Source of the DNA: Arcobacteraceae bacterium
GTDB taxonomy: Bacteria > Campylobacterota > Campylobacteria > Campylobacterales > Arcobacteraceae
NCBI GenBank assembly: GCA_041694355.1
Contig: JASMTK010000012.1
Coordinates: forward strand, 11,201 to 75,200
Reading direction: 5' to 3'
Length of the DNA stretch: 64,000 nt
Shown piece after piece: positions 32,303 to 40,899 of this stretch. The notes under the pieces were generated by a model. The model was not told the DNA's origin and did not search any database. It saw only the letters and a list, made by a program, of their open reading frames with translations. Within the stretch, counting starts at the first letter, position 1; each line of letters begins with the position of its first letter. A program made the position numbers and the translations under genes.

Positions 32303-33150
32303 TGAAAACAGTTTTTAACAAAAAAGAGTTAATAAATCTTCTTTATTTAACTTTTGGTTCTGCTTTAATAGCTGTTTCGGTTGTACTATTTTTCGTACCT
32401 CACAACTTCACCACAGGTGGAACACCAGGTTTAGCTATTCTTTTGCATCACCTAACTGGCTTTTCAATAGGTTTAATGGTGATTGCTATAAATATACCTT
32501 TGCTTATTTGGGGTATAAAATATTTAGGTAAGCTATTTGCTATTAAAACAATTATTTCAATTGGTTTAATATCTCTTTTTCTTGACCTTTTTTCTTATGC
32601 TTTAAGCTTTGATATTTTGATTGAAAATATTCTAGTAGCAGCTATTTTTGGTGGAACTATAATAGGCTTTGGAGTTGGTCTTATAATCAAAGGGAACGCT
32701 AGTGCTGGTGGTTCTACTATAGTTGCTAGAGTTTTATCTATAAAATCAAATATCAAACCTGCAAAAGTAATACTAATAAGTGATACTTTGATAGTTTTAA
32801 GTTCAATATATGTATTTGAAGATTTTGAAAAAGCTGTTTTAAGTATAATGAGTATTTATGCTACTGCTAAAGCTATTGATGTGATACTTACAGGTACCCT
32901 AAGTACTAAAGTTATTCATATTGCTACAAATAAGCCAATTGAACTAAGTGAAAAAATATCTAAAGCATTAGTTGATGATGGAACAATAATAAATGGAACA
33001 GCTTTGAATAATAAAGATGGTAAAACTCTAATCTTTATGGTATTAAATGTTAAAAAACTGGGTGAATTAAGACAAATAATAGAACAAACAGATAAAGAAG
33101 CATTTATGATAGTAATGGAAGCATCTGAGATGCTTGGCCGAGGTCATTAA
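32302..33150 (+). CDS. YitT/DUF161 family membrane protein
   Basis: FTTGGTPGLAI; INIPLL; GNASAGGS; C-terminal DKEAFM domain. Confidence 0.88.
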   Translation: MKTVFNKKELINLLYLTFGSALIAVSVVLFFVPHNFTTGGTPGLAILLHHLTGFSIGLMVIAINIPLLIWGIKYLGKLFAIKTIISIGLISLFLDLFSYALSFDILIENILVAAIFGGTIIGFGVGLIIKGNASAGGSTIVARVLSIKSNIKPAKVILISDTLIVLSSIYVFEDFEKAVLSIMSIYATAKAIDVILTGTLSTKVIHIATNKPIELSEKISKALVDDGTIINGTALNNKDGKTLIFMVLNVKKLGELRQIIEQTDKEAFMIVMEASEMLGRGH

Positions 33151-34103
33151 AAAGAGGCAGTATTATATCTCTCTTTATCTTTTATAACCTCAGCATTTAA
33201 AACTATATCAACTATAGTTTTATCTTTATTATCTGAAAATTTTTCAATGATTTTATCACAAACTTTTACAAGTTCTTTTTCTCTTTGAAGCTCACTTAAA
33301 ATCACTGATTTATTATGAAGTGCAAAAGCAACCTCTTTTTGCATAAAGCCCTTTGGATAGTTCTCAAATTTATTTATTAATTTATCATATGTTTCGATTG
33401 CTTCATATACTCTATTTGACTCTTTTAATCTACTAGCTTTATTTATCATTGACTTTGCTACAAAATCTAAGATATACTCATCTACACTATCTTGGAAGTT
33501 TTCGATAATATAGTTATAAGTTTTAATAGCATCATCTGCCCTATCTTTTTTTGTTTCTAATAAAGCACAGTTATAACAACCTAAAATAACTTGCTGTAAT
33601 ACATCATTGTCTGTACTGTTTTTAAAGTTTAAAATAAACTCTTTATATACTTTTATTGCATCATCTAAACTTTTTAATTCACTTGTACAAATAGCTTTAT
33701 TTATGTATGATTTAGCAAGAACTATTTCCATCTCATCTGAGGTATCTTCCATAAATCTTTCAATCAAAGTTTCATAAGTTTTTAACTCTGATTGATAATC
33801 TTTTAACTTAGCATAAATCAAAGCTTTGTTGTAATAGGCATAAGATAAGAACTTCTCCACCTCTTTACTTTCTGAAGTGTCAAATCTTTTTATAATCTCA
33901 TCATAACAAGCAATTACCTCTTTTGTTTTATTTATGTTTGTAAGTGCTGTTGCTTTTCCCATAAGAGTATAAAATACTTCCCTATCATTATCATCTGCAA
34001 CATCCAATAAATCATCTACAAAACCTAAGGCCTCATCAAACTCTTCATTTTTTAGTCTATTTCTAAATTGTGTATATAGCTCTTCAAAAGTTGTATGATT
34101 CAA
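33147..34103 (-). CDS. TPR-like protein with about six 43-aa repeats
   Basis: Recurrent NKA...Y..II..F....A..N units at 43-residue spacing; TTG start with SD AAGG. Confidence 0.82.
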   Translation of the reverse strand: MNHTTFEELYTQFRNRLKNEEFDEALGFVDDLLDVADDNDREVFYTLMGKATALTNINKTKEVIACYDEIIKRFDTSESKEVEKFLSYAYYNKALIYAKLKDYQSELKTYETLIERFMEDTSDEMEIVLAKSYINKAICTSELKSLDDAIKVYKEFILNFKNSTDNDVLQQVILGCYNCALLETKKDRADDAIKTYNYIIENFQDSVDEYILDFVAKSMINKASRLKESNRVYEAIETYDKLINKFENYPKGFMQKEVAFALHNKSVILSELQREKELVKVCDKIIEKFSDNKDKTIVDIVLNAEVIKDKERYNTASF

Positions 34104-34179
34104 TTTTATTTACCTTTATAAACTCTTTTTTTTATTTTACTAAAGATTACTTGAATAGATATTAATAAAATAAACTAGT

Positions 34180-34659
34180 TTAATTTATAGCAAACTTTCT
34201 TAAAGAATCACCCTCTAATCTATAACCAATCCACTCATCAAGTGATTTTGCACCAATACTTTCATAGAACTCTCTTGATGGTGTATTCCAATCTAAGCAA
34301 ACCCACTCCAATCTTCCATAGTCATTTTCAAGGGCTTTTTTGGCAAGATGTTTTAACATCTTTTTTCCTGCACCATTTCCTCTTTTAGACTCTGTTATAT
34401 ATAAATCTTCTAGATAAATTCCATTTTTTCCAAGCCATGTTGAGTAGTTATAAAAATATATAGCATAACCAATAGCGACACCATCTTCTTCACAAATCAG
34501 TGCTTCTACGGTAGAATCCTTACCAAATATTGCCTCTCTTGTCTCTTCTACTGTTGTTTTCACTTCATGTTTAGCTTTTTCATAAACTGCTAACTCTACT
34601 ATAAAATCATATATTGTTTTTGCATCACTTACTACTGCTTGTCTTATAGTAACTGCCAT
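34180..34659 (-). CDS. GNAT acetyltransferase (SSAT/diamine-acetyltransferase-like)
   Basis: YNYSTWLGKNGIYLEDLYI; RGNGAG; LDWN. Confidence 0.9.
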   Translation of the reverse strand: MAVTIRQAVVSDAKTIYDFIVELAVYEKAKHEVKTTVEETREAIFGKDSTVEALICEEDGVAIGYAIYFYNYSTWLGKNGIYLEDLYITESKRGNGAGKKMLKHLAKKALENDYGRLEWVCLDWNTPSREFYESIGAKSLDEWIGYRLEGDSLRKFAIN

Positions 34660-34675
34660 TTTGTTATCTCCTATA

Positions 34676-35311
34676 CTAATTTATCTTCTCTACTTTTTCT
34701 TCAAAACCTTCATGATAACTAATCATTACAGGTACTTCTATATCTTTAATATATTTTTCTATCATTTGAGTTAGGTTCTCTTTATTTGTAAACTTTTTTG
34801 CATATTCATCTTTTAGTTTTATATAAATAACCGTACCAGATGTCTCTTCATTTATACAAGGTGCTACATTAAAAGTTTCACCATCACAATTGTATTTATA
34901 AGCTGTACTTTCACCTAATCCTTTTGAGATTATTGATATTTTTTTTGCTACTAAAAATACAGAATATAACCCTACACTACTTGGACAAACCTCTTCCTCA
35001 ATATATTTATTTGCTCTATGAATTGCGTGGGTTTGAGTACAGTTTGTAAGCTCATTTTTTGTCATACCTAAACCATTATCTACAATAGTTAAAGAACCAT
35101 CATAACTATCAAAGTATATTTCTATAAACCCCTCATAATCTTTTAACTCTTTTTGAAACTCTTCTTCTTTTTTAAGTTCATAAAGCTTTGTAACTGCTGT
35201 ATTTGAATTGTGAATTAACTCTTTTAAAAATAAATCTTTGTTTGTATCTTTCTCATTTGATAAAGCGTTAATCATCTTTTTTATTCTTTCATTCATTTTA
35301 TATTCTGACAT
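34676..35311 (-). CDS. Stand-alone degenerate HtpG/Hsp90 N-terminal (GHKL) domain
   Basis: Aligns with the htpG N-domain in this window: KELIHN vs RELVSN; DNGLGM; VGLYSVFLVA; identical GTVIYIKLKDE; ATG 35311 behind AGGAG. Confidence 0.82.
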   Translation of the reverse strand: MSEYKMNERIKKMINALSNEKDTNKDLFLKELIHNSNTAVTKLYELKKEEEFQKELKDYEGFIEIYFDSYDGSLTIVDNGLGMTKNELTNCTQTHAIHRANKYIEEEVCPSSVGLYSVFLVAKKISIISKGLGESTAYKYNCDGETFNVAPCINEETSGTVIYIKLKDEYAKKFTNKENLTQMIEKYIKDIEVPVMISYHEGFEEKVEKIN

Positions 35312-35452
35312 ATTCAACTCCTAAATTTGTGACGATACTCTAACACAAATAGATAAAAAAATCTTTATAGATTGGTGTTAATACTAAAATATTTAAATTT
35401 TTAACTATTTATATTAAATAATAACATTCATCATAACTTAGACAAGTTATTT

Positions 35453-35775
35453 TCAAAGGTTAATTTTAAGATAATCTTCAATCATAGGACGATAATCCTT
35501 TCTACAAACTAAAGATGATTTATGTTTCTCATTTGTGAAGTTGCTTCTTCTACTTTTTTTACAATATCTACAGCAAAAGGGTATAGTTTCTCACCCTCAT
35601 TTGTAAGAACAACCCCTCTGTTTGTTCTATGAAATAGACTATAAGCTAAGTTTTTTTCAAGCTGTTTGATTCTTGAAGTTATGTTTGACTGAGTGAAGCC
35701 TAAGCTCTTAGCTGCATTTGATATACTTTTTTCATTTTTTACTGTGATAAATACTTTTAATAAATTTGAATCCAT
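35453..35775 (-). pseudogene. LysR-family regulator with a large internal deletion
   Basis: Intact HTH (SISNAAKSLGFTQSNITSRIKQLE) ends at TAG 35509-35511; an out-of-frame tail LVCRKDYRPMIEDYLKINL-stop follows immediately. Confidence 0.65.
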
Positions 35776-35800
35776 AAAACTTCCTATAATCTTTTGTGTT

Positions 35801-36544
35801 TTAAATAGCTATAGTTTGAACTACTAAACCAACAGCTATGATAAACAGTAATACTTTTAAAATCTTTGCATAAAACTTTGCATCGATTTTTTTCTTTATT
35901 TTTATACCAAAGTATAAACCAATAGCAACTAAAAACATACTAGCAAATGATATTTCAACAGCCGTACTACTAAATGCTCCAAAATATACAAAAGTTGCTA
36001 TCTGACCTACTTTTGTAAATAAAAAACATAAGTTTGATAGTTGAATAGTATCTTTTTTAGAGTACTTAAGCTCTAAAGTATACATGATAGTCAAAGGTGC
36101 TACAACATTTGTAAGACCTGATACAATACCACCAATCAAACCTAATCCATAAGTAGATGATTTAGGATAAGAAGAGATAAAAGTGGCTCTAACTTTTATA
36201 GCTGATTGAATCAAATAAGCAAAGATGATAAAAGCTAACAGCAACTTAAAATACTCAGAATTAAAATAAACAAGTATATAAGTTCCAACACAAGAACCAA
36301 TCACCATAAGAAGTATAATAAACCAAAACTTCCTCAAAGCCTCAAAAAACTTCCCCTCACTTAAAATACTAACTAAGTTCACAATCATAGTAGGAACAAT
36401 AATATAAGTAATAGTAGTTTGAATATCAGTAAAAAGTGCAACAACAGGCGTAGAAATAAGCCCAAAACCAAAACCAATACTTCCATGAATAAAAGAAGAA
36501 ATCAGTATAACAAGAGTAAAAACAATAAGAAATTCAGTTTCCAT
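35801..36544 (-). CDS. TauE/SafE (sulfite exporter-like) membrane protein
   Basis: GSIGFGFGLISTP; GGIVSGLTNV; highly hydrophobic; ATG 36544 behind AAGG. Confidence 0.82.
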   Translation of the reverse strand: METEFLIVFTLVILISSFIHGSIGFGFGLISTPVVALFTDIQTTITYIIVPTMIVNLVSILSEGKFFEALRKFWFIILLMVIGSCVGTYILVYFNSEYFKLLLAFIIFAYLIQSAIKVRATFISSYPKSSTYGLGLIGGIVSGLTNVVAPLTIMYTLELKYSKKDTIQLSNLCFLFTKVGQIATFVYFGAFSSTAVEISFASMFLVAIGLYFGIKIKKKIDAKFYAKILKVLLFIIAVGLVVQTIAI

Positions 36545-36638
36545 ATGACTACCTTTAATATTACATATAACTATGTGTAATACCAAATAGTATTACTAAT
36601 CATTATATCTGATTTTTTTTAAAGGGGTTTGAATTTGT

Positions 36639-36968
36639 TTATTTAGTAAGTATTTGTTTGATAGTATTTTCAAGTTTTGGTAAATGAGTTCTTATAATAT
36701 CTTCAATAAGCATTTTATTTACACCTTCATAATCATGTGCAATAAAATTTCGTACATCATAAGTACCTTTTATTGGTAGACTTGAAGCAAAATCTTCATT
36801 TCTTAGTTTATGTAGTGTTTCACCTATTTGAAGTAAACACATTAACGTGGCATCATATCCCATAGTATCGTTAAGAAGTTCTTCAATGCTTTTAAATCTT
36901 TGACGAAAGGAGTTAACATCTTCTATTTTTTCTAAAATAAAATGTAGCTTTTCAAAAGAACTAGACAT
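36639..36968 (-). CDS. HEPN/DUF86 (HepT-like) RNase toxin
   Basis: RNFIAHDY matches RX4HXY; LLQIGE. Confidence 0.88.
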   Translation of the reverse strand: MSSSFEKLHFILEKIEDVNSFRQRFKSIEELLNDTMGYDATLMCLLQIGETLHKLRNEDFASSLPIKGTYDVRNFIAHDYEGVNKMLIEDIIRTHLPKLENTIKQILTK

Positions 36969-37269
36969 ATAAAATATCTTTTAAAGCATATTTTTTAAAG
37001 GTACGGCTATTATTGTCAATAGTAGCAATATCAACTTTTAAATTAAGTGTATTTTGTAAATCTTCTTTAATTTGTGAAAGCTTTGAAAAGGCTTCAAAAC
37101 CTGAGTATTTTTCAACAAAAGTAGGTTCTATATCATAAAGTAAATCTATATCACTATCTTTTGTCTGTGTATTTTTAGCATAAGAGCCAAATACTCCTAC
37201 AATTTTAAATCCATCTTTTAAAAGTTTTTGTTTTTCTATTTTGATTTTATCTAATAACTCTTTTTCCAT
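36961..37269 (-). CDS. Minimal nucleotidyltransferase (MntA-like antitoxin)
   Basis: GSYAKNTQTKDSDID matches GSX10DXD; overlaps the HEPN gene by 8 nt. Confidence 0.9.
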   Translation of the reverse strand: MEKELLDKIKIEKQKLLKDGFKIVGVFGSYAKNTQTKDSDIDLLYDIEPTFVEKYSGFEAFSKLSQIKEDLQNTLNLKVDIATIDNNSRTFKKYALKDILYV

Positions 37270-37327: not shown

Positions 37328-38677
37328 TTATTTCTTATTATGATTTTCAAAAATATCAATATATTTTAGTAGTCTTTCTTTTACTTCTTGGTTTTCAAAA
37401 GAGTTAGCCCAATCTTTTAACTCACCAAAAGACCAATTTTCAATAGATGTATCTTTAAACTCTTCTTTCCACTCTTCTATTTCATTATCAATTTCAGAAT
37501 CTTTTGCTTTTTCTAAAAGAGTTAACATTTTGTATTGAATAAGCTCACTTTTATCATCTTTTACAAGCTTAGAATATAAATTTAAATCTTTTTGTGAATT
37601 TAATTTATTTAATATTAAATTTGTTTCTATTTTATTTATTAAAGCACTTGCAACTTTTTCTAAAATACTATTTTCTTTTGAATTTTTGAATCTTTTTACC
37701 ATTTCATCGTATACTTCTATTTCTTCTTCACTTCTATTTATTTGTCCAAGTGTTAGAGCCTTATTATATAAAGCACTTGAAACATTCTTTAAAATGCTAT
37801 TATCTTTTGAATCTTCAAATCTTTTTACCATTTCATCATATACTTCTATTGATTCTTGATTTTTTTCTAATCGACCTAATGTAATTGCTTTAGACCATAG
37901 AATTTTTAATAAACTATTATCACTTAAAGCTTCTTTTTCTAGAATATTTAAATCCTCTAAAGCTTCTTGATAATTTTCTTTAACAAATTTTGAAACAAAC
38001 AATTTATATTTGTCTTCAAAAGTGTAATCCTTCTTATTTTTAGATGACTTTATCTCTTGAATTTCTTCTTCTAATTCTTTCTTTTCATCTTCTGTAAAAT
38101 CTTTTTTATCTAGTAATTTCTTTCTATTTTCTAATTCTTGAGTTAATCCTTCATTTTTTTCAAATAATTTTTTAGCCTTATCATCAATCTCTTCCAAATA
38201 AACATCAACTTTTGATTTAAATTCCTTATCAGCTTTTTCATCAATCCATTTTTTTAATTATTTTTCTGCTGCTAATTTAGCTTCTTTTTTTGCACTATTT
38301 GCATAACTTCTATTTACTAAGAAAACCACAAAACCTGTAAAAATAGCAATTGCTGAAAATCCAATCCCCCAATAGTTTAAGTTCGAATGAACATCTTCAA
38401 TTCTTTTATCTTGTCTATCAATTATATTTTTATAGTTTTCTAAAGAGTTTTTATCTTTTCTTAATTCATCTAATTTATTTTCTAACTCTTTTATCTCATT
38501 TTCTTTTTGAATTATCTGTCCAAAAATAAGAGTGATTTTTTCATCATTTATTTTTTGTGCATATTCTTGTGAGGTTTTGAGTTCAAATAGTTTTTGATTT
38601 ACTTCTTCATTTGAAGCAAAAAGAGAAGATATAAATATAAAAGTTAAAATTATAGATTTAAAAAAAGAGTTGTGCAT
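37328..38677 (-). pseudogene. Membrane-anchored coiled-coil/TPR-like gene interrupted by one in-frame TAA
   Basis: Track ORFs 38258-38704 and 37328-38197 share a frame and are separated only by TAA 38258-38260 (AAEK*LKKWIDEKADKEF). Confidence 0.78.
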
Positions 38678-38760
38678 AAAATTGTCCCGTGAATTTTTGA
38701 ACACATTTTATTATTTTATAGCTATATGTGAGGTTAAAAATACTTTAGTGATTTACTTAA

Positions 38761-38878: not shown

Positions 38879-40789
38879 TTAAAGAGCTTTTGCTGTGATT
38901 CTTGAAAGTCTTTGAGCAAACGCTACTGTATCTGTGATTTCCATCCCCTCAGATAACTTTGCTTGGTCTAGTAGTACCCATGATACATCTTCTACTGTTG
39001 AGTCATCACTTAAGTCTTTTAACTTAGCTACGATTTCATGATCTGGGTTGATTTCTAAGATTGGAGCTGTTTCTGGCATCTCTTGTCCCATTGCTCTCAT
39101 CATTTGTTGCATTTGTGCCATTTGTGCATCACCTGCATCTTTTACTACACAAGATGGTGAGTCTGAAAGTCTATTTGTAACTCTTACATCTGTTACACTT
39201 TCACCTAAAATATCTTTGATTTTTTTAGTAATATCTTCAAACTTCTCTTCAACTTCTTTTTTCTCTTCTTCAGACTGCTCTACTTTTGGAGCTTCACAAG
39301 CTGTGATGTCTTTAAACTCCCACTCTTTGTATGCACCATACATTGGAGTTACGATTTCATCGATTTCTTTATCATCTAAGATTAAAACTTCGATGTCATT
39401 TTTCTTATACGCTTCTAATAATGGTGAGTTTCTAAGAACATTCTCATTTTCACCTACGATGTAGTAAATAGCTTTTTGCTCTGTATCTGCGTTGTCTTTG
39501 TATTGCGCTAAAGAAGTCATCTCACCTGTATTTGTTTTTGTTGATTTAAATCTAATTAAATCTAAGATTGTATCTTTATTTGTGAAGTCTTGATAAGCAC
39601 CCTCTTTTAGTGGTCTATTGTATTGTTCAATAAACTCTTTGTACTTCTCTTCGTCTTTTGCTAACTTTTTGATTTCATTTAAAATCTTTTTAACAGATGA
39701 TTGTTTGATATTTGCTAAGATTCTGTTTTCTTGTAAGATTTCTCTTGAAACGTTTAATGGTAAATCTTCACTATCAATAATACCTCTAACAAATCTTAAG
39801 TAAGTTGGTAATAACTCTTTTTCATCATCAGTAATAAATACTCTTTTAACATAAAGCTTAACACCTGGTTGATAATCAGCTCTATACATATCCATAGGTG
39901 CAGTTTTTGGAATATAGAAAAGTGTAGTATACTCATTTACACCCTCTGCTTTTGTGTGAATAGTTGCTAATGGATCTTGTGAGTCATGAGATATTGATTT
40001 ATAGAACTCATTATAGTCTTCTTGTTTTAAGCTTGATTTTGGTTGAGTCCATAAAGCAGTTGCTGCATTGATTTGTTCATGTCTATTTTCTGTTGTTTTT
40101 TTAGGTTCTTTACCCTCTTTTTTCTCTTCTTCACTTAACTCTTCTTCTACTTCTTCTTGGTAGTTTAAGTAAATTGGGTAAGCGATATGGTTAGAGTATT
40201 TTCCAATAATATTTTCAATTCTATGTTTACTTACAAACTCTTCAGCCTCTTCATCTTTTAACTTGATGTAGATTACTGTACCATTTGATTCTTTAGTAAC
40301 AGGAATAATCTCATACTCACCTGTACCATTTGAAGACCACTTATAAGCTTGCTCTTCACCTGCTTTTTTAGAGATAACATCAACATGAGATGCCACCATA
40401 AATACAGAATAGAATCCAACCCCAAACTGTCCGATTAAGTTAGAGTCTTTTTTTGCATCACCTGTTAAGTTATCAATAAAAGATTTTGTACCTGATTTTG
40501 CTATTGTACCAATAGAAGAGATTAACTCATCTTCATTCATACCAACACCATTATCAATAATACTTATTGATTTATCTTCTTCATCAAATGAAATATTTAC
40601 TTCACCTGACCAATTCTCTAATTCATTTTTTAATTTATCATCAGTTAATTTTAAATAATTTAATTTATCAATAGCATCACTTGCATTTGATACAAGCTCT
40701 CTTATGAAAATCTCTTTATTTGAGTATAAAGAGTGAGTCATAAGATGTAATAACTGTCCTACTTCTGTTTGAAATTGATGTTTAGCCAC
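38879..40789 (-). CDS. htpG: Chaperone HtpG (Hsp90), 636 aa
   Basis: FQTEV; RELVSNASDA; GQFGVGFYS; DLPLNVSREILQ; GTG 40789 lies 7 nt after AGGAG (the track start is too far upstream). Confidence 0.97.
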   Translation of the reverse strand: MAKHQFQTEVGQLLHLMTHSLYSNKEIFIRELVSNASDAIDKLNYLKLTDDKLKNELENWSGEVNISFDEEDKSISIIDNGVGMNEDELISSIGTIAKSGTKSFIDNLTGDAKKDSNLIGQFGVGFYSVFMVASHVDVISKKAGEEQAYKWSSNGTGEYEIIPVTKESNGTVIYIKLKDEEAEEFVSKHRIENIIGKYSNHIAYPIYLNYQEEVEEELSEEEKKEGKEPKKTTENRHEQINAATALWTQPKSSLKQEDYNEFYKSISHDSQDPLATIHTKAEGVNEYTTLFYIPKTAPMDMYRADYQPGVKLYVKRVFITDDEKELLPTYLRFVRGIIDSEDLPLNVSREILQENRILANIKQSSVKKILNEIKKLAKDEEKYKEFIEQYNRPLKEGAYQDFTNKDTILDLIRFKSTKTNTGEMTSLAQYKDNADTEQKAIYYIVGENENVLRNSPLLEAYKKNDIEVLILDDKEIDEIVTPMYGAYKEWEFKDITACEAPKVEQSEEEKKEVEEKFEDITKKIKDILGESVTDVRVTNRLSDSPSCVVKDAGDAQMAQMQQMMRAMGQEMPETAPILEINPDHEIVAKLKDLSDDSTVEDVSWVLLDQAKLSEGMEITDTVAFAQRLSRITAKAL

Positions 40790-40872: not shown

Positions 40873-40899
40873 TTAGCACTTTTATATATCAAGTGCTAA
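40873..40899. promoter_or_regulatory. CIRCE-like (HrcA) operator
   Basis: TTAGCACTT-N9-AAGTGCTAA versus consensus TTAGCACTC-N9-GAGTGCTAA, between divergent htpG and ciaB. Confidence 0.8.

Follow-up and report, generated by a model that had tools for sequence, protein, structure and literature searches.

A stand-alone HtpG N-domain paralogue with a deleted ATP lid, and its gene neighbourhood, in Arcobacteraceae

Eukaryotic Hsp90 is controlled by tetratricopeptide repeat (TPR) co-chaperones and by acetylation, and N-N dimerisation of this chaperone uses the N-terminal strand and helix. Bacteria, to our knowledge, are generally thought to be without accessory proteins for HtpG, the bacterial Hsp90. 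To take the ATPase cycle apart, Hsp90 research relies on proteins that have been truncated or deprived of the lid by engineering, and a natural case of both is considered here: a gene for a stand-alone HtpG N-terminal domain, termed mini-HtpG, in a stretch of 64,000 nucleotides from an Arcobacteraceae bacterium (contig JASMTK010000012.1), which as a whole is referred to as the window. The gene is co-oriented on the minus strand with a gene for a GNAT acetyltransferase and one for a TPR-like protein of 318 residues, here TPR318, and full-length htpG lies upstream on the same strand. Mini-HtpG appears to be a real gene for a previously undescribed, lineage-restricted HtpG N-domain with a deleted lid, and it is probably an accessory paralogue of HtpG, a pseudo-ATPase under selection that arose by partial duplication of htpG.

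The closest described relatives are the N-domains of HtpG and Hsp90 themselves, among them those of Borrelia burgdorferi HtpG (7u4c), Grp94 and Hsp90-alpha, with which mini-HtpG shares the Bergerat/GHKL fold, 26-33% identity, the domain boundaries, the motif I Asn, the DxGxG box and the GT motif. Unlike HtpG, however, it is encoded by a separate gene, has neither a middle nor a C-terminal domain, has a lid that is short or absent, and does not universally keep the catalytic Glu. The nearest engineered counterpart is a lidless yeast Hsp82 (Hsp82-LL), in which the ATP lid is deleted from the Hsp90 N-domain as in mini-HtpG; it has no ATPase activity by itself and strongly stimulates its wild-type partner in a heterodimer (PMC5018835). 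Hsp82-LL is nonetheless a full-length protein that acts by C-terminal heterodimerisation, whereas mini-HtpG consists of the N-domain alone and carries many other substitutions besides. In the papers searched we found no description of a bacterial stand-alone HtpG N-domain, nor of partners of Arcobacter HtpG.

Domain content, fold and motifs of mini-HtpG

The only Pfam match of mini-HtpG is HATPase_c_3 (PF13589, 2.3e-09), whereas the HtpG of the window additionally has PF00183, covering the middle and C-terminal dimerisation domains, which goes unmatched in mini-HtpG with its end at residue 211. BLASTP aligns the protein with residues 29-241 of the window HtpG at 32% identity (E-value 4e-37), the comparison having been made with the listed open reading frame (ORF) of 666 residues from GTG 40879, and in an alignment with three HtpG N-domains its C-terminal end coincides with the start of the HtpG charged linker. 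It scores 114 bits with the HtpG equivalog model, for which the cut-off is 371, and in the PDB the N-domain of Borrelia HtpG gives the best sequence match (1.3e-18). With 11 family members as its basis, an AlphaFold model reached a predicted local distance difference test (pLDDT) score of 89.8 and superposes on the N-domains of Hsp90, Grp94 and HtpG with template modelling (TM) scores of 0.75-0.79. The likeness to HtpG lies well beyond chance.

The machinery of ATP hydrolysis is kept to a varying extent. Both the general base Glu and the Mg2+-binding Asn of motif I are present in the window protein, in which the Asp of HtpG NASDA has become Thr, but they are not kept family-wide: in three congeners (G002-G004) the catalytic Glu is replaced by Ala (KALLSN), and in the metagenomic member P0021 both residues are replaced and PVT stands in place of SGT. 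The lid of the window protein has lost TIAKSGTK, and a gap of nine residues takes out DSNLIGQFG and leaves PSS-VGLYS, so that of the GxxGxG box (GQFGVG in Hsp90) the last Gly alone survives. The GQFG deletion is found in every member aligned, and the lid is shortened relative to HtpG by 9 residues in the window protein, by 18 in P0004 and P0008 and by about 29 in P0021 and the copy of genome G083, the latter two being entirely lidless. Judged from these alignments, the ATPase machinery has been lost progressively across the family. Because of the losses in lid and motifs, together with the missing ATPase activity of the engineered lidless Hsp82, the members of the family are most likely non-hydrolytic pseudo-ATPases.

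Other parts of the domain have been held more tightly. Asp78, Gly80 and Gly82 of the DxGxG box, which makes the adenine contact, are invariant across all members, as are Thr160 of the GT motif, kept in the window protein, several core strands and the final hairpin. The most conserved block is the C-terminal APCINxExSGTVIYIKLKDEFAKEFTNKENL, which is also the block most like HtpG, and the least conserved part of the family is the N-terminal strand and helix. The acidic C-terminus EEKVEKIN was considered as an EEVD-like tail and this was rejected, the segment aligning with the start of the HtpG charged linker and forming the final beta-strand of the domain in the model; a structural reason for its conservation is probable.

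An earlier note on this DNA, made from the letters alone, had already described a 211-residue protein covering only the HtpG N-domain, with its own Shine-Dalgarno sequence and a clean stop, a description borne out by Pfam, BLASTP and the AGGAG at 35318-35322. Its account of the motifs, with the catalytic Glu and Asn (KELIHN) and DNGxGM kept, the lid shortened and GQFGVG changed, likewise agrees with the alignments (Glu31, Asn35, Asp78, Gly80 and Gly82), and the gene spacing it gave is correct, the GNAT gene following after 16 nt and the TPR-like gene after a further gap of 76 nt, at about 3.5 kb from htpG (3.57 kb). The suggestion that this is an uncharacterised stand-alone GHKL pseudo-ATPase holds up on the lid and motif losses, which make the protein very likely non-hydrolytic, and the statement that it is no fresh duplication relic is upheld by the intact orthologues and the substitution ratios given in the following section.

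Distribution, selection and origin of the mini gene

A survey of 184 genomes of Arcobacteraceae, searched with a profile of the mini family, returned the mini gene from 10: four of the six genomes of the window's genus, four of the 25 of a second genus and two of the seven of a third. True members score 292-348 bits and HtpG N-domains at most 172, and the ten copies are open over 211-223 codons, uninterrupted by stops. A fourth genus holds one more diverged mini gene, of 189 residues, in genome G083, where it lies on a different contig from htpG and TPR318 has no orthologue. Among 1.84 billion representative proteins there are four clusters at 50% identity that score at least 149 bits, the next matches being ordinary Hsp90s at 100 bits.

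The ratio of non-synonymous to synonymous substitution rates (dN/dS) of the mini gene is 0.10-0.30 in all unsaturated pairs, with bootstrap upper limits of at most 0.43 where dS exceeds 0.1, and the gene is clearly under purifying selection. At the same time, when the same genomes are paired, its dN is about five times as high as for the N-domain of HtpG, and the window copy is only 43-51% identical to all others, compared with 85-94% for HtpG. In an unrooted HtpG tree the mini genes are monophyletic with support of 100/100, and their clade joins the HtpGs of their own family, outside a clade with support of 96/93 that unites the HtpGs of nine further families in the order. The string LAPCxKE..GTVIYIKLKDE.A.EF is common to mini genes and Arcobacteraceae HtpGs; outside the family its core GTVIYIKL was met in G029 alone among the nine other families sampled, the rest having GTEITL or GTDITL-like sequences. 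In one genome the mini gene stands directly after htpG. These comparisons are explained most simply, and most likely correctly, by partial duplication of an Arcobacteraceae htpG and subsequent acceleration of the copy's evolution.

Loss of the gene has left a trace in G001 (L026 6113-6148), where the mini upstream region and the last eight codons (EKIEKLN-stop) remain between the LysR and GNAT genes, a remnant that reads as a deletion scar. Since deletion has occurred repeatedly, the mini gene would be useful but dispensable.

As a separate observation, divergence is mosaic between positions 33147-36586 of the window and L013 of G002: the TauE-family protein is 97% identical (dS 0.13) and HtpG 89% (dS 0.56), with the mini protein at 49% and TPR318 at 53% (dS about 0.9-1.4), and the HtpG tree splits the window's genus. 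This pattern suggests cross-species recombination or allele replacement.

The favoured reading, the neighbouring genes and the alternatives

On the reading we hold to be probable, namely that mini-HtpG is an accessory paralogue, the part of an Arcobacteraceae htpG that encodes the N-terminal GHKL domain would have been duplicated, within the htpG locus or close to it, to give a copy that goes no further than the beginning of the charged linker. Lid and Gly-rich phosphate box would have been lost from the copy afterwards, some members also losing the catalytic Glu and the Mg-binding Asn. What is kept is the rest of the Bergerat fold, including Asp78, Gly80, Gly82 and Thr160 of the adenine pocket. 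The gene evolves about five times faster than its parent N-domain, under purifying selection and with repeated deletion. We would regard the product foremost as a binding protein rather than an enzyme, acting through its base pocket (on an adenine-type ligand) or its conserved C-terminal surface; as a second preference it may modulate HtpG, because it is derived from HtpG and usually encoded near it.

Several points weigh against this interpretation. Conservation of the four pocket residues could be purely structural, and the poorly conserved N-terminal strand and helix weakens the case for a simple N-N decoy on HtpG. The member in G083 is unlinked to htpG, and given the patchy distribution of the family its function cannot be central to HtpG biology. 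On the tree, the attachment point of the mini clade rests on a long stem branch, and the HtpGs within the family form a polytomy.

Mini-HtpG is a natural stand-alone N-domain whose lid has been progressively deleted and which purifying selection has kept, and as such a case for asking what the Hsp90 N-domain can do without ATP hydrolysis, whether it senses a ligand, binds a partner or acts in trans on HtpG. Its origin by duplication of part of a gene would also make it a clean example of how a pseudoenzyme is born. The practical bearing of this is limited, the gene being dispensable and found in about a dozen species.

The ORF that follows the mini gene encodes a GNAT (PF00583, 2e-16) whose residues 1-157 align end to end with the thialysine acetyltransferase 12jc (3e-58) and with a Pseudomonas homologue, 2fe7 (1.3e-57), matches to human SSAT1/2 lying between 1e-19 and 1e-23. 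The likeness to the class of thialysine/diamine (spermidine-spermine type) N-acetyltransferases, which includes 2bei and 2b4d, is thus over the full length, and nothing ties this class to acetylation of Hsp90. The protein is 79-82% identical among congeners, is found in two other families of the order as well, and is present in genomes with no mini gene. By homology it is probably a small-molecule acetyltransferase, not a protein acetylase, and an unrelated neighbour.

TPR318, the third ORF, matches TPR models (TPR_6, 4.7e-10), and its confident model (pLDDT 92) shows a solenoid made up entirely of helices, with a repeat of 43 residues. Residues 92, 135, 178, 221 and 264 are Asn, in most cases followed by Lys, and take the same position within the long helix of their respective repeats; four of these ladder residues are invariant in 17 orthologues, and Asn178 is invariant in an alignment of six sequences. 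A sequence search against the PDB gave only noise, and by fold the protein is closest to consensus TPR superhelices, the TPR domain of O-GlcNAc transferase (OGT) and LGN (TM 0.42-0.65). The OGT (1w3b) and LGN/Pins TPR domains, in which extended peptides are bound in an Asn-lined groove, share the all-helical solenoid and the Asn ladder with TPR318. They differ from it in a repeat period of 34 residues instead of 43, and TPR318 is confined to about five genera of Arcobacteraceae. It is not of the three-repeat carboxylate-clamp type known from Hop and Sti1, Sti1 TPR2AB and Hop chains giving TM scores of 0.31-0.32, and the C-terminus of HtpG reads ...RITAKAL, and not EEVD, throughout the 16 genomes compared. 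The HtpG linker and C-terminus showed no feature specific to TPR318-positive genomes.

TPR318 is found in 37 of the 184 genomes (6 of 6, 7 of 7 and 22 of 25 in the three main genera). It lies on the same strand as htpG and 0-10 kb downstream of it wherever both positions were recorded, in five genera and despite intervening indels, and it directly follows htpG in two genomes of different genera that have no mini gene, G005 (L027 3527-4480) and G090 (contig C13 25222-26169). In several genomes the gene directly after htpG is a membrane-anchored TPR318 paralogue with the same repeats. TPR318 is a conserved neighbour of htpG, and its presence is independent of the mini gene. The synteny with htpG may be mere inheritance and would be a weak lead only. 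That TPR318, its membrane-anchored paralogue and/or mini-HtpG bind HtpG or pass clients to it, with mini-HtpG as a non-hydrolysing mimic of the N-domain, is quite unlikely; if it were so, some Arcobacteraceae would have lineage-specific accessory proteins of HtpG.

Gene order around these genes, read in the direction of htpG, differs between genera. Carriers in the window's genus have htpG - (variable) - TauE - LysR - mini - GNAT - TPR318. Those of the second genus (g13) have TauE - LysR - mini - TPR318 with the GNAT gene 3-6 kb further on, and those of the third (g20) htpG - (0-2 genes) - mini - TauE - LysR - (0-2 genes) - GNAT - TPR318, an order shared by G132 except that no GNAT gene is in the locus examined. 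Adjacency of mini and GNAT genes is therefore restricted to the window's genus. Genomes with no mini gene may keep the neighbours, the order being LysR - GNAT - TPR318 in G001, and both GNAT and TPR318 being present in G017 and G024. In G083 the mini gene (L033 9938-10507 (-)) stands 77 nt downstream of an ABC-transporter-like operon of four genes (376, 245, 304 and 198 aa), with linkage neither to htpG nor to a GNAT or TPR318 gene. Since only 10 of the 37 TPR318-positive genomes have a mini gene, which is absent from the other 27, co-occurrence of the two carries no information beyond shared ancestry.

These data bear on the proposal of the earlier note that mini-HtpG, the GNAT and the TPR protein act jointly on HtpG as a co-chaperone or decoy module. 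The proposal could draw on the co-orientation and short gaps of the three genes, seen in the window and in three congeners, on the position of every canonical mini gene within 10 kb of htpG, on the periodic Asn ladder of TPR318, typical of peptide-binding TPR solenoids, and on the TPR318-like repeat protein directly after htpG. It does not fit with a GNAT so close to small-molecule enzymes and shared with other families, with a gene order that varies among three genera to the point that the GNAT gene is missing from the locus or kilobases away, with the persistence of GNAT and TPR318 after the mini deletion in G001, with the many TPR318-positive genomes that have no mini gene, or with the unlinked mini gene of G083, a genome devoid of TPR318. 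The HtpG tail and the poor structural match of the Sti1/Hop domains to TPR318 point the same way, and a joint module is highly improbable. The parallel to eukaryotic control of Hsp90 rests on synteny in one genus and should stay out of annotation. The same note had looked to relatives for orthologues and synteny: intact orthologues do exist in 10 of the 184 genomes, but the three-gene synteny is not conserved across genera. It had named absence or breakage of the mini gene with dN/dS near 1, or unlinked genes, as signs against its idea; the mini gene is indeed absent in relatives and the genes are unlinked elsewhere, but the copies are not broken and dN/dS is not near 1.

A regulator acting in trans on HtpG alone, by docking on the HtpG N-domain or competing for a ligand or client and so tuning the ATPase cycle, is unlikely but would accord with lidless Hsp82, inactive alone and a potent stimulator of its wild-type partner. 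It would also accord with the derivation of the mini gene from htpG, with its distance of 0.2-7 kb from htpG in 10 of 11 genomes, and with the coincidence of the block most conserved in the family and the block most like HtpG. The engineered effect, however, needs the C-terminal dimerisation domain that mini-HtpG does not have, the strand and helix used in N-N dimerisation are the least conserved part of the family, the mini gene has no CIRCE element that would make co-regulation with htpG evident, and one member is unlinked. A slowly decaying duplicate without function of its own is very unlikely: while its fast evolution and low identity between lineages, the stepwise loss of lid and catalytic motifs, the repeated losses of the gene with one deletion scar and the decay of neighbours in the window (an internal deletion in LysR, an in-frame stop in a TPR-repeat gene) are what such a relic might present, intact stop-free frames of 188-213 aa persist in eleven genomes (the ten canonical ones and G083) and in several metagenomic sequences. 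Long invariant blocks also persist, the dN/dS values have narrow bootstrap ranges, and the protein is confidently folded in its model. A role in anti-phage defence, to which the rapid change of the gene and the MNT/HepT pair close by had drawn attention, was rejected, as PADLOC gave nothing meaningful: a weak match at the level of GHKL for mini-HtpG (TmtA, 1e-4), with the GNAT and TPR proteins unmatched. The accessory paralogue thus remains the reading that we consider probable.

Layout of the window locus

The features of the locus are collected in the table. The listed ORF of the mini gene, 34676-35317, gives 213 residues from TTG 35317; ATG 35311, which gives 211, is preferred as the start because its Shine-Dalgarno sequence is better, and the GNAT start is likewise preceded by an AGGAG of its own. 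Four features separate htpG from the trio: the disrupted gene of a membrane-anchored protein with TPR repeats, an MNT/HepT pair, a gene of the TauE family and what remains of a LysR gene. The window is AT-rich, with a GC content of 27-29% at the locus and no compositional break. Promoter-like sites in the region of the trio were not above shuffled sequence and no terminator was found among the three genes, in a scan that was uninformative, and no tandem repeats were found at DNA level. Heat-shock co-regulation of the mini gene was considered and rejected, as a scan of the window found a CIRCE repeat only before htpG and none upstream of the mini gene.

Table. Features of the mini-HtpG locus in window coordinates
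Feature	Position	Strand	Basis or remark
TPR318, 318 aa, predicted cytosolic TPR-like solenoid with Asn(-Lys) ladder	33147..34103	(-)	
GNAT, 159 aa, close to solved thialysine/diamine N-acetyltransferases	34180..34659	(-)	probably an unrelated neighbour
mini-HtpG, 211-aa stand-alone Hsp90/HtpG N-domain paralogue	34676..35311	(-)	Pfam, BLASTP, AlphaFold fold
Degenerate, shortened ATP-lid segment, residues 84-114	34970..35062	(-)	alignments
GHKL motif II DNGLGM (Asp78, Gly80, Gly82)	35063..35080	(-)	alignments
GHKL motif I remnant ELIHN (Glu31...Asn35)	35207..35221	(-)	alignments
AGGAG ribosome-binding site of mini-HtpG, 6 nt before ATG 35311	35318..35322	(-)	read directly
LysR-family regulator remnant between TauE and mini gene	35509-35775, remnant to about 35465	(-)	
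htpG-downstream gene, two-transmembrane coiled-coil protein with TPR318-like repeats	37328..38704	(-)	in-frame stop 38258-38260
Full-length htpG, 636 aa from GTG 40789	38879..40789	(-)	nearest relative, within this genome, of the parent of the mini gene
CIRCE-type inverted repeat TTAGCACTT-N9-AAGTGCTAA between htpG and divergent gene	40873..40899	(.)	sole match in 64-kb window

The LysR gene of the window has lost about 490 nt from its interior; only an 88-aa helix-turn-helix part stays in frame, and the final 18 codons persist out of frame. In congeners the protein has 271-272 residues. The product of the gene downstream of htpG consists, in this order, of an N-terminal transmembrane segment, a coiled coil, a second transmembrane segment and cytosolic TPR318-like repeats, and with its one in-frame stop the gene is about 215 aa shorter than the versions intact in two congeners (652/673 aa). 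The htpG of G116 (L021 6160-8162) is in two ORFs of 424 and 213 aa, which would be either a frameshift or an assembly error, the completeness of this genome being 81%. Between htpG and the TauE-family gene of the window, an MNT nucleotidyltransferase/HepT-type toxin-antitoxin pair is inserted at 36639-37269 (-), and other genera have similar but diverged MNT/HepT pairs at the same spot.

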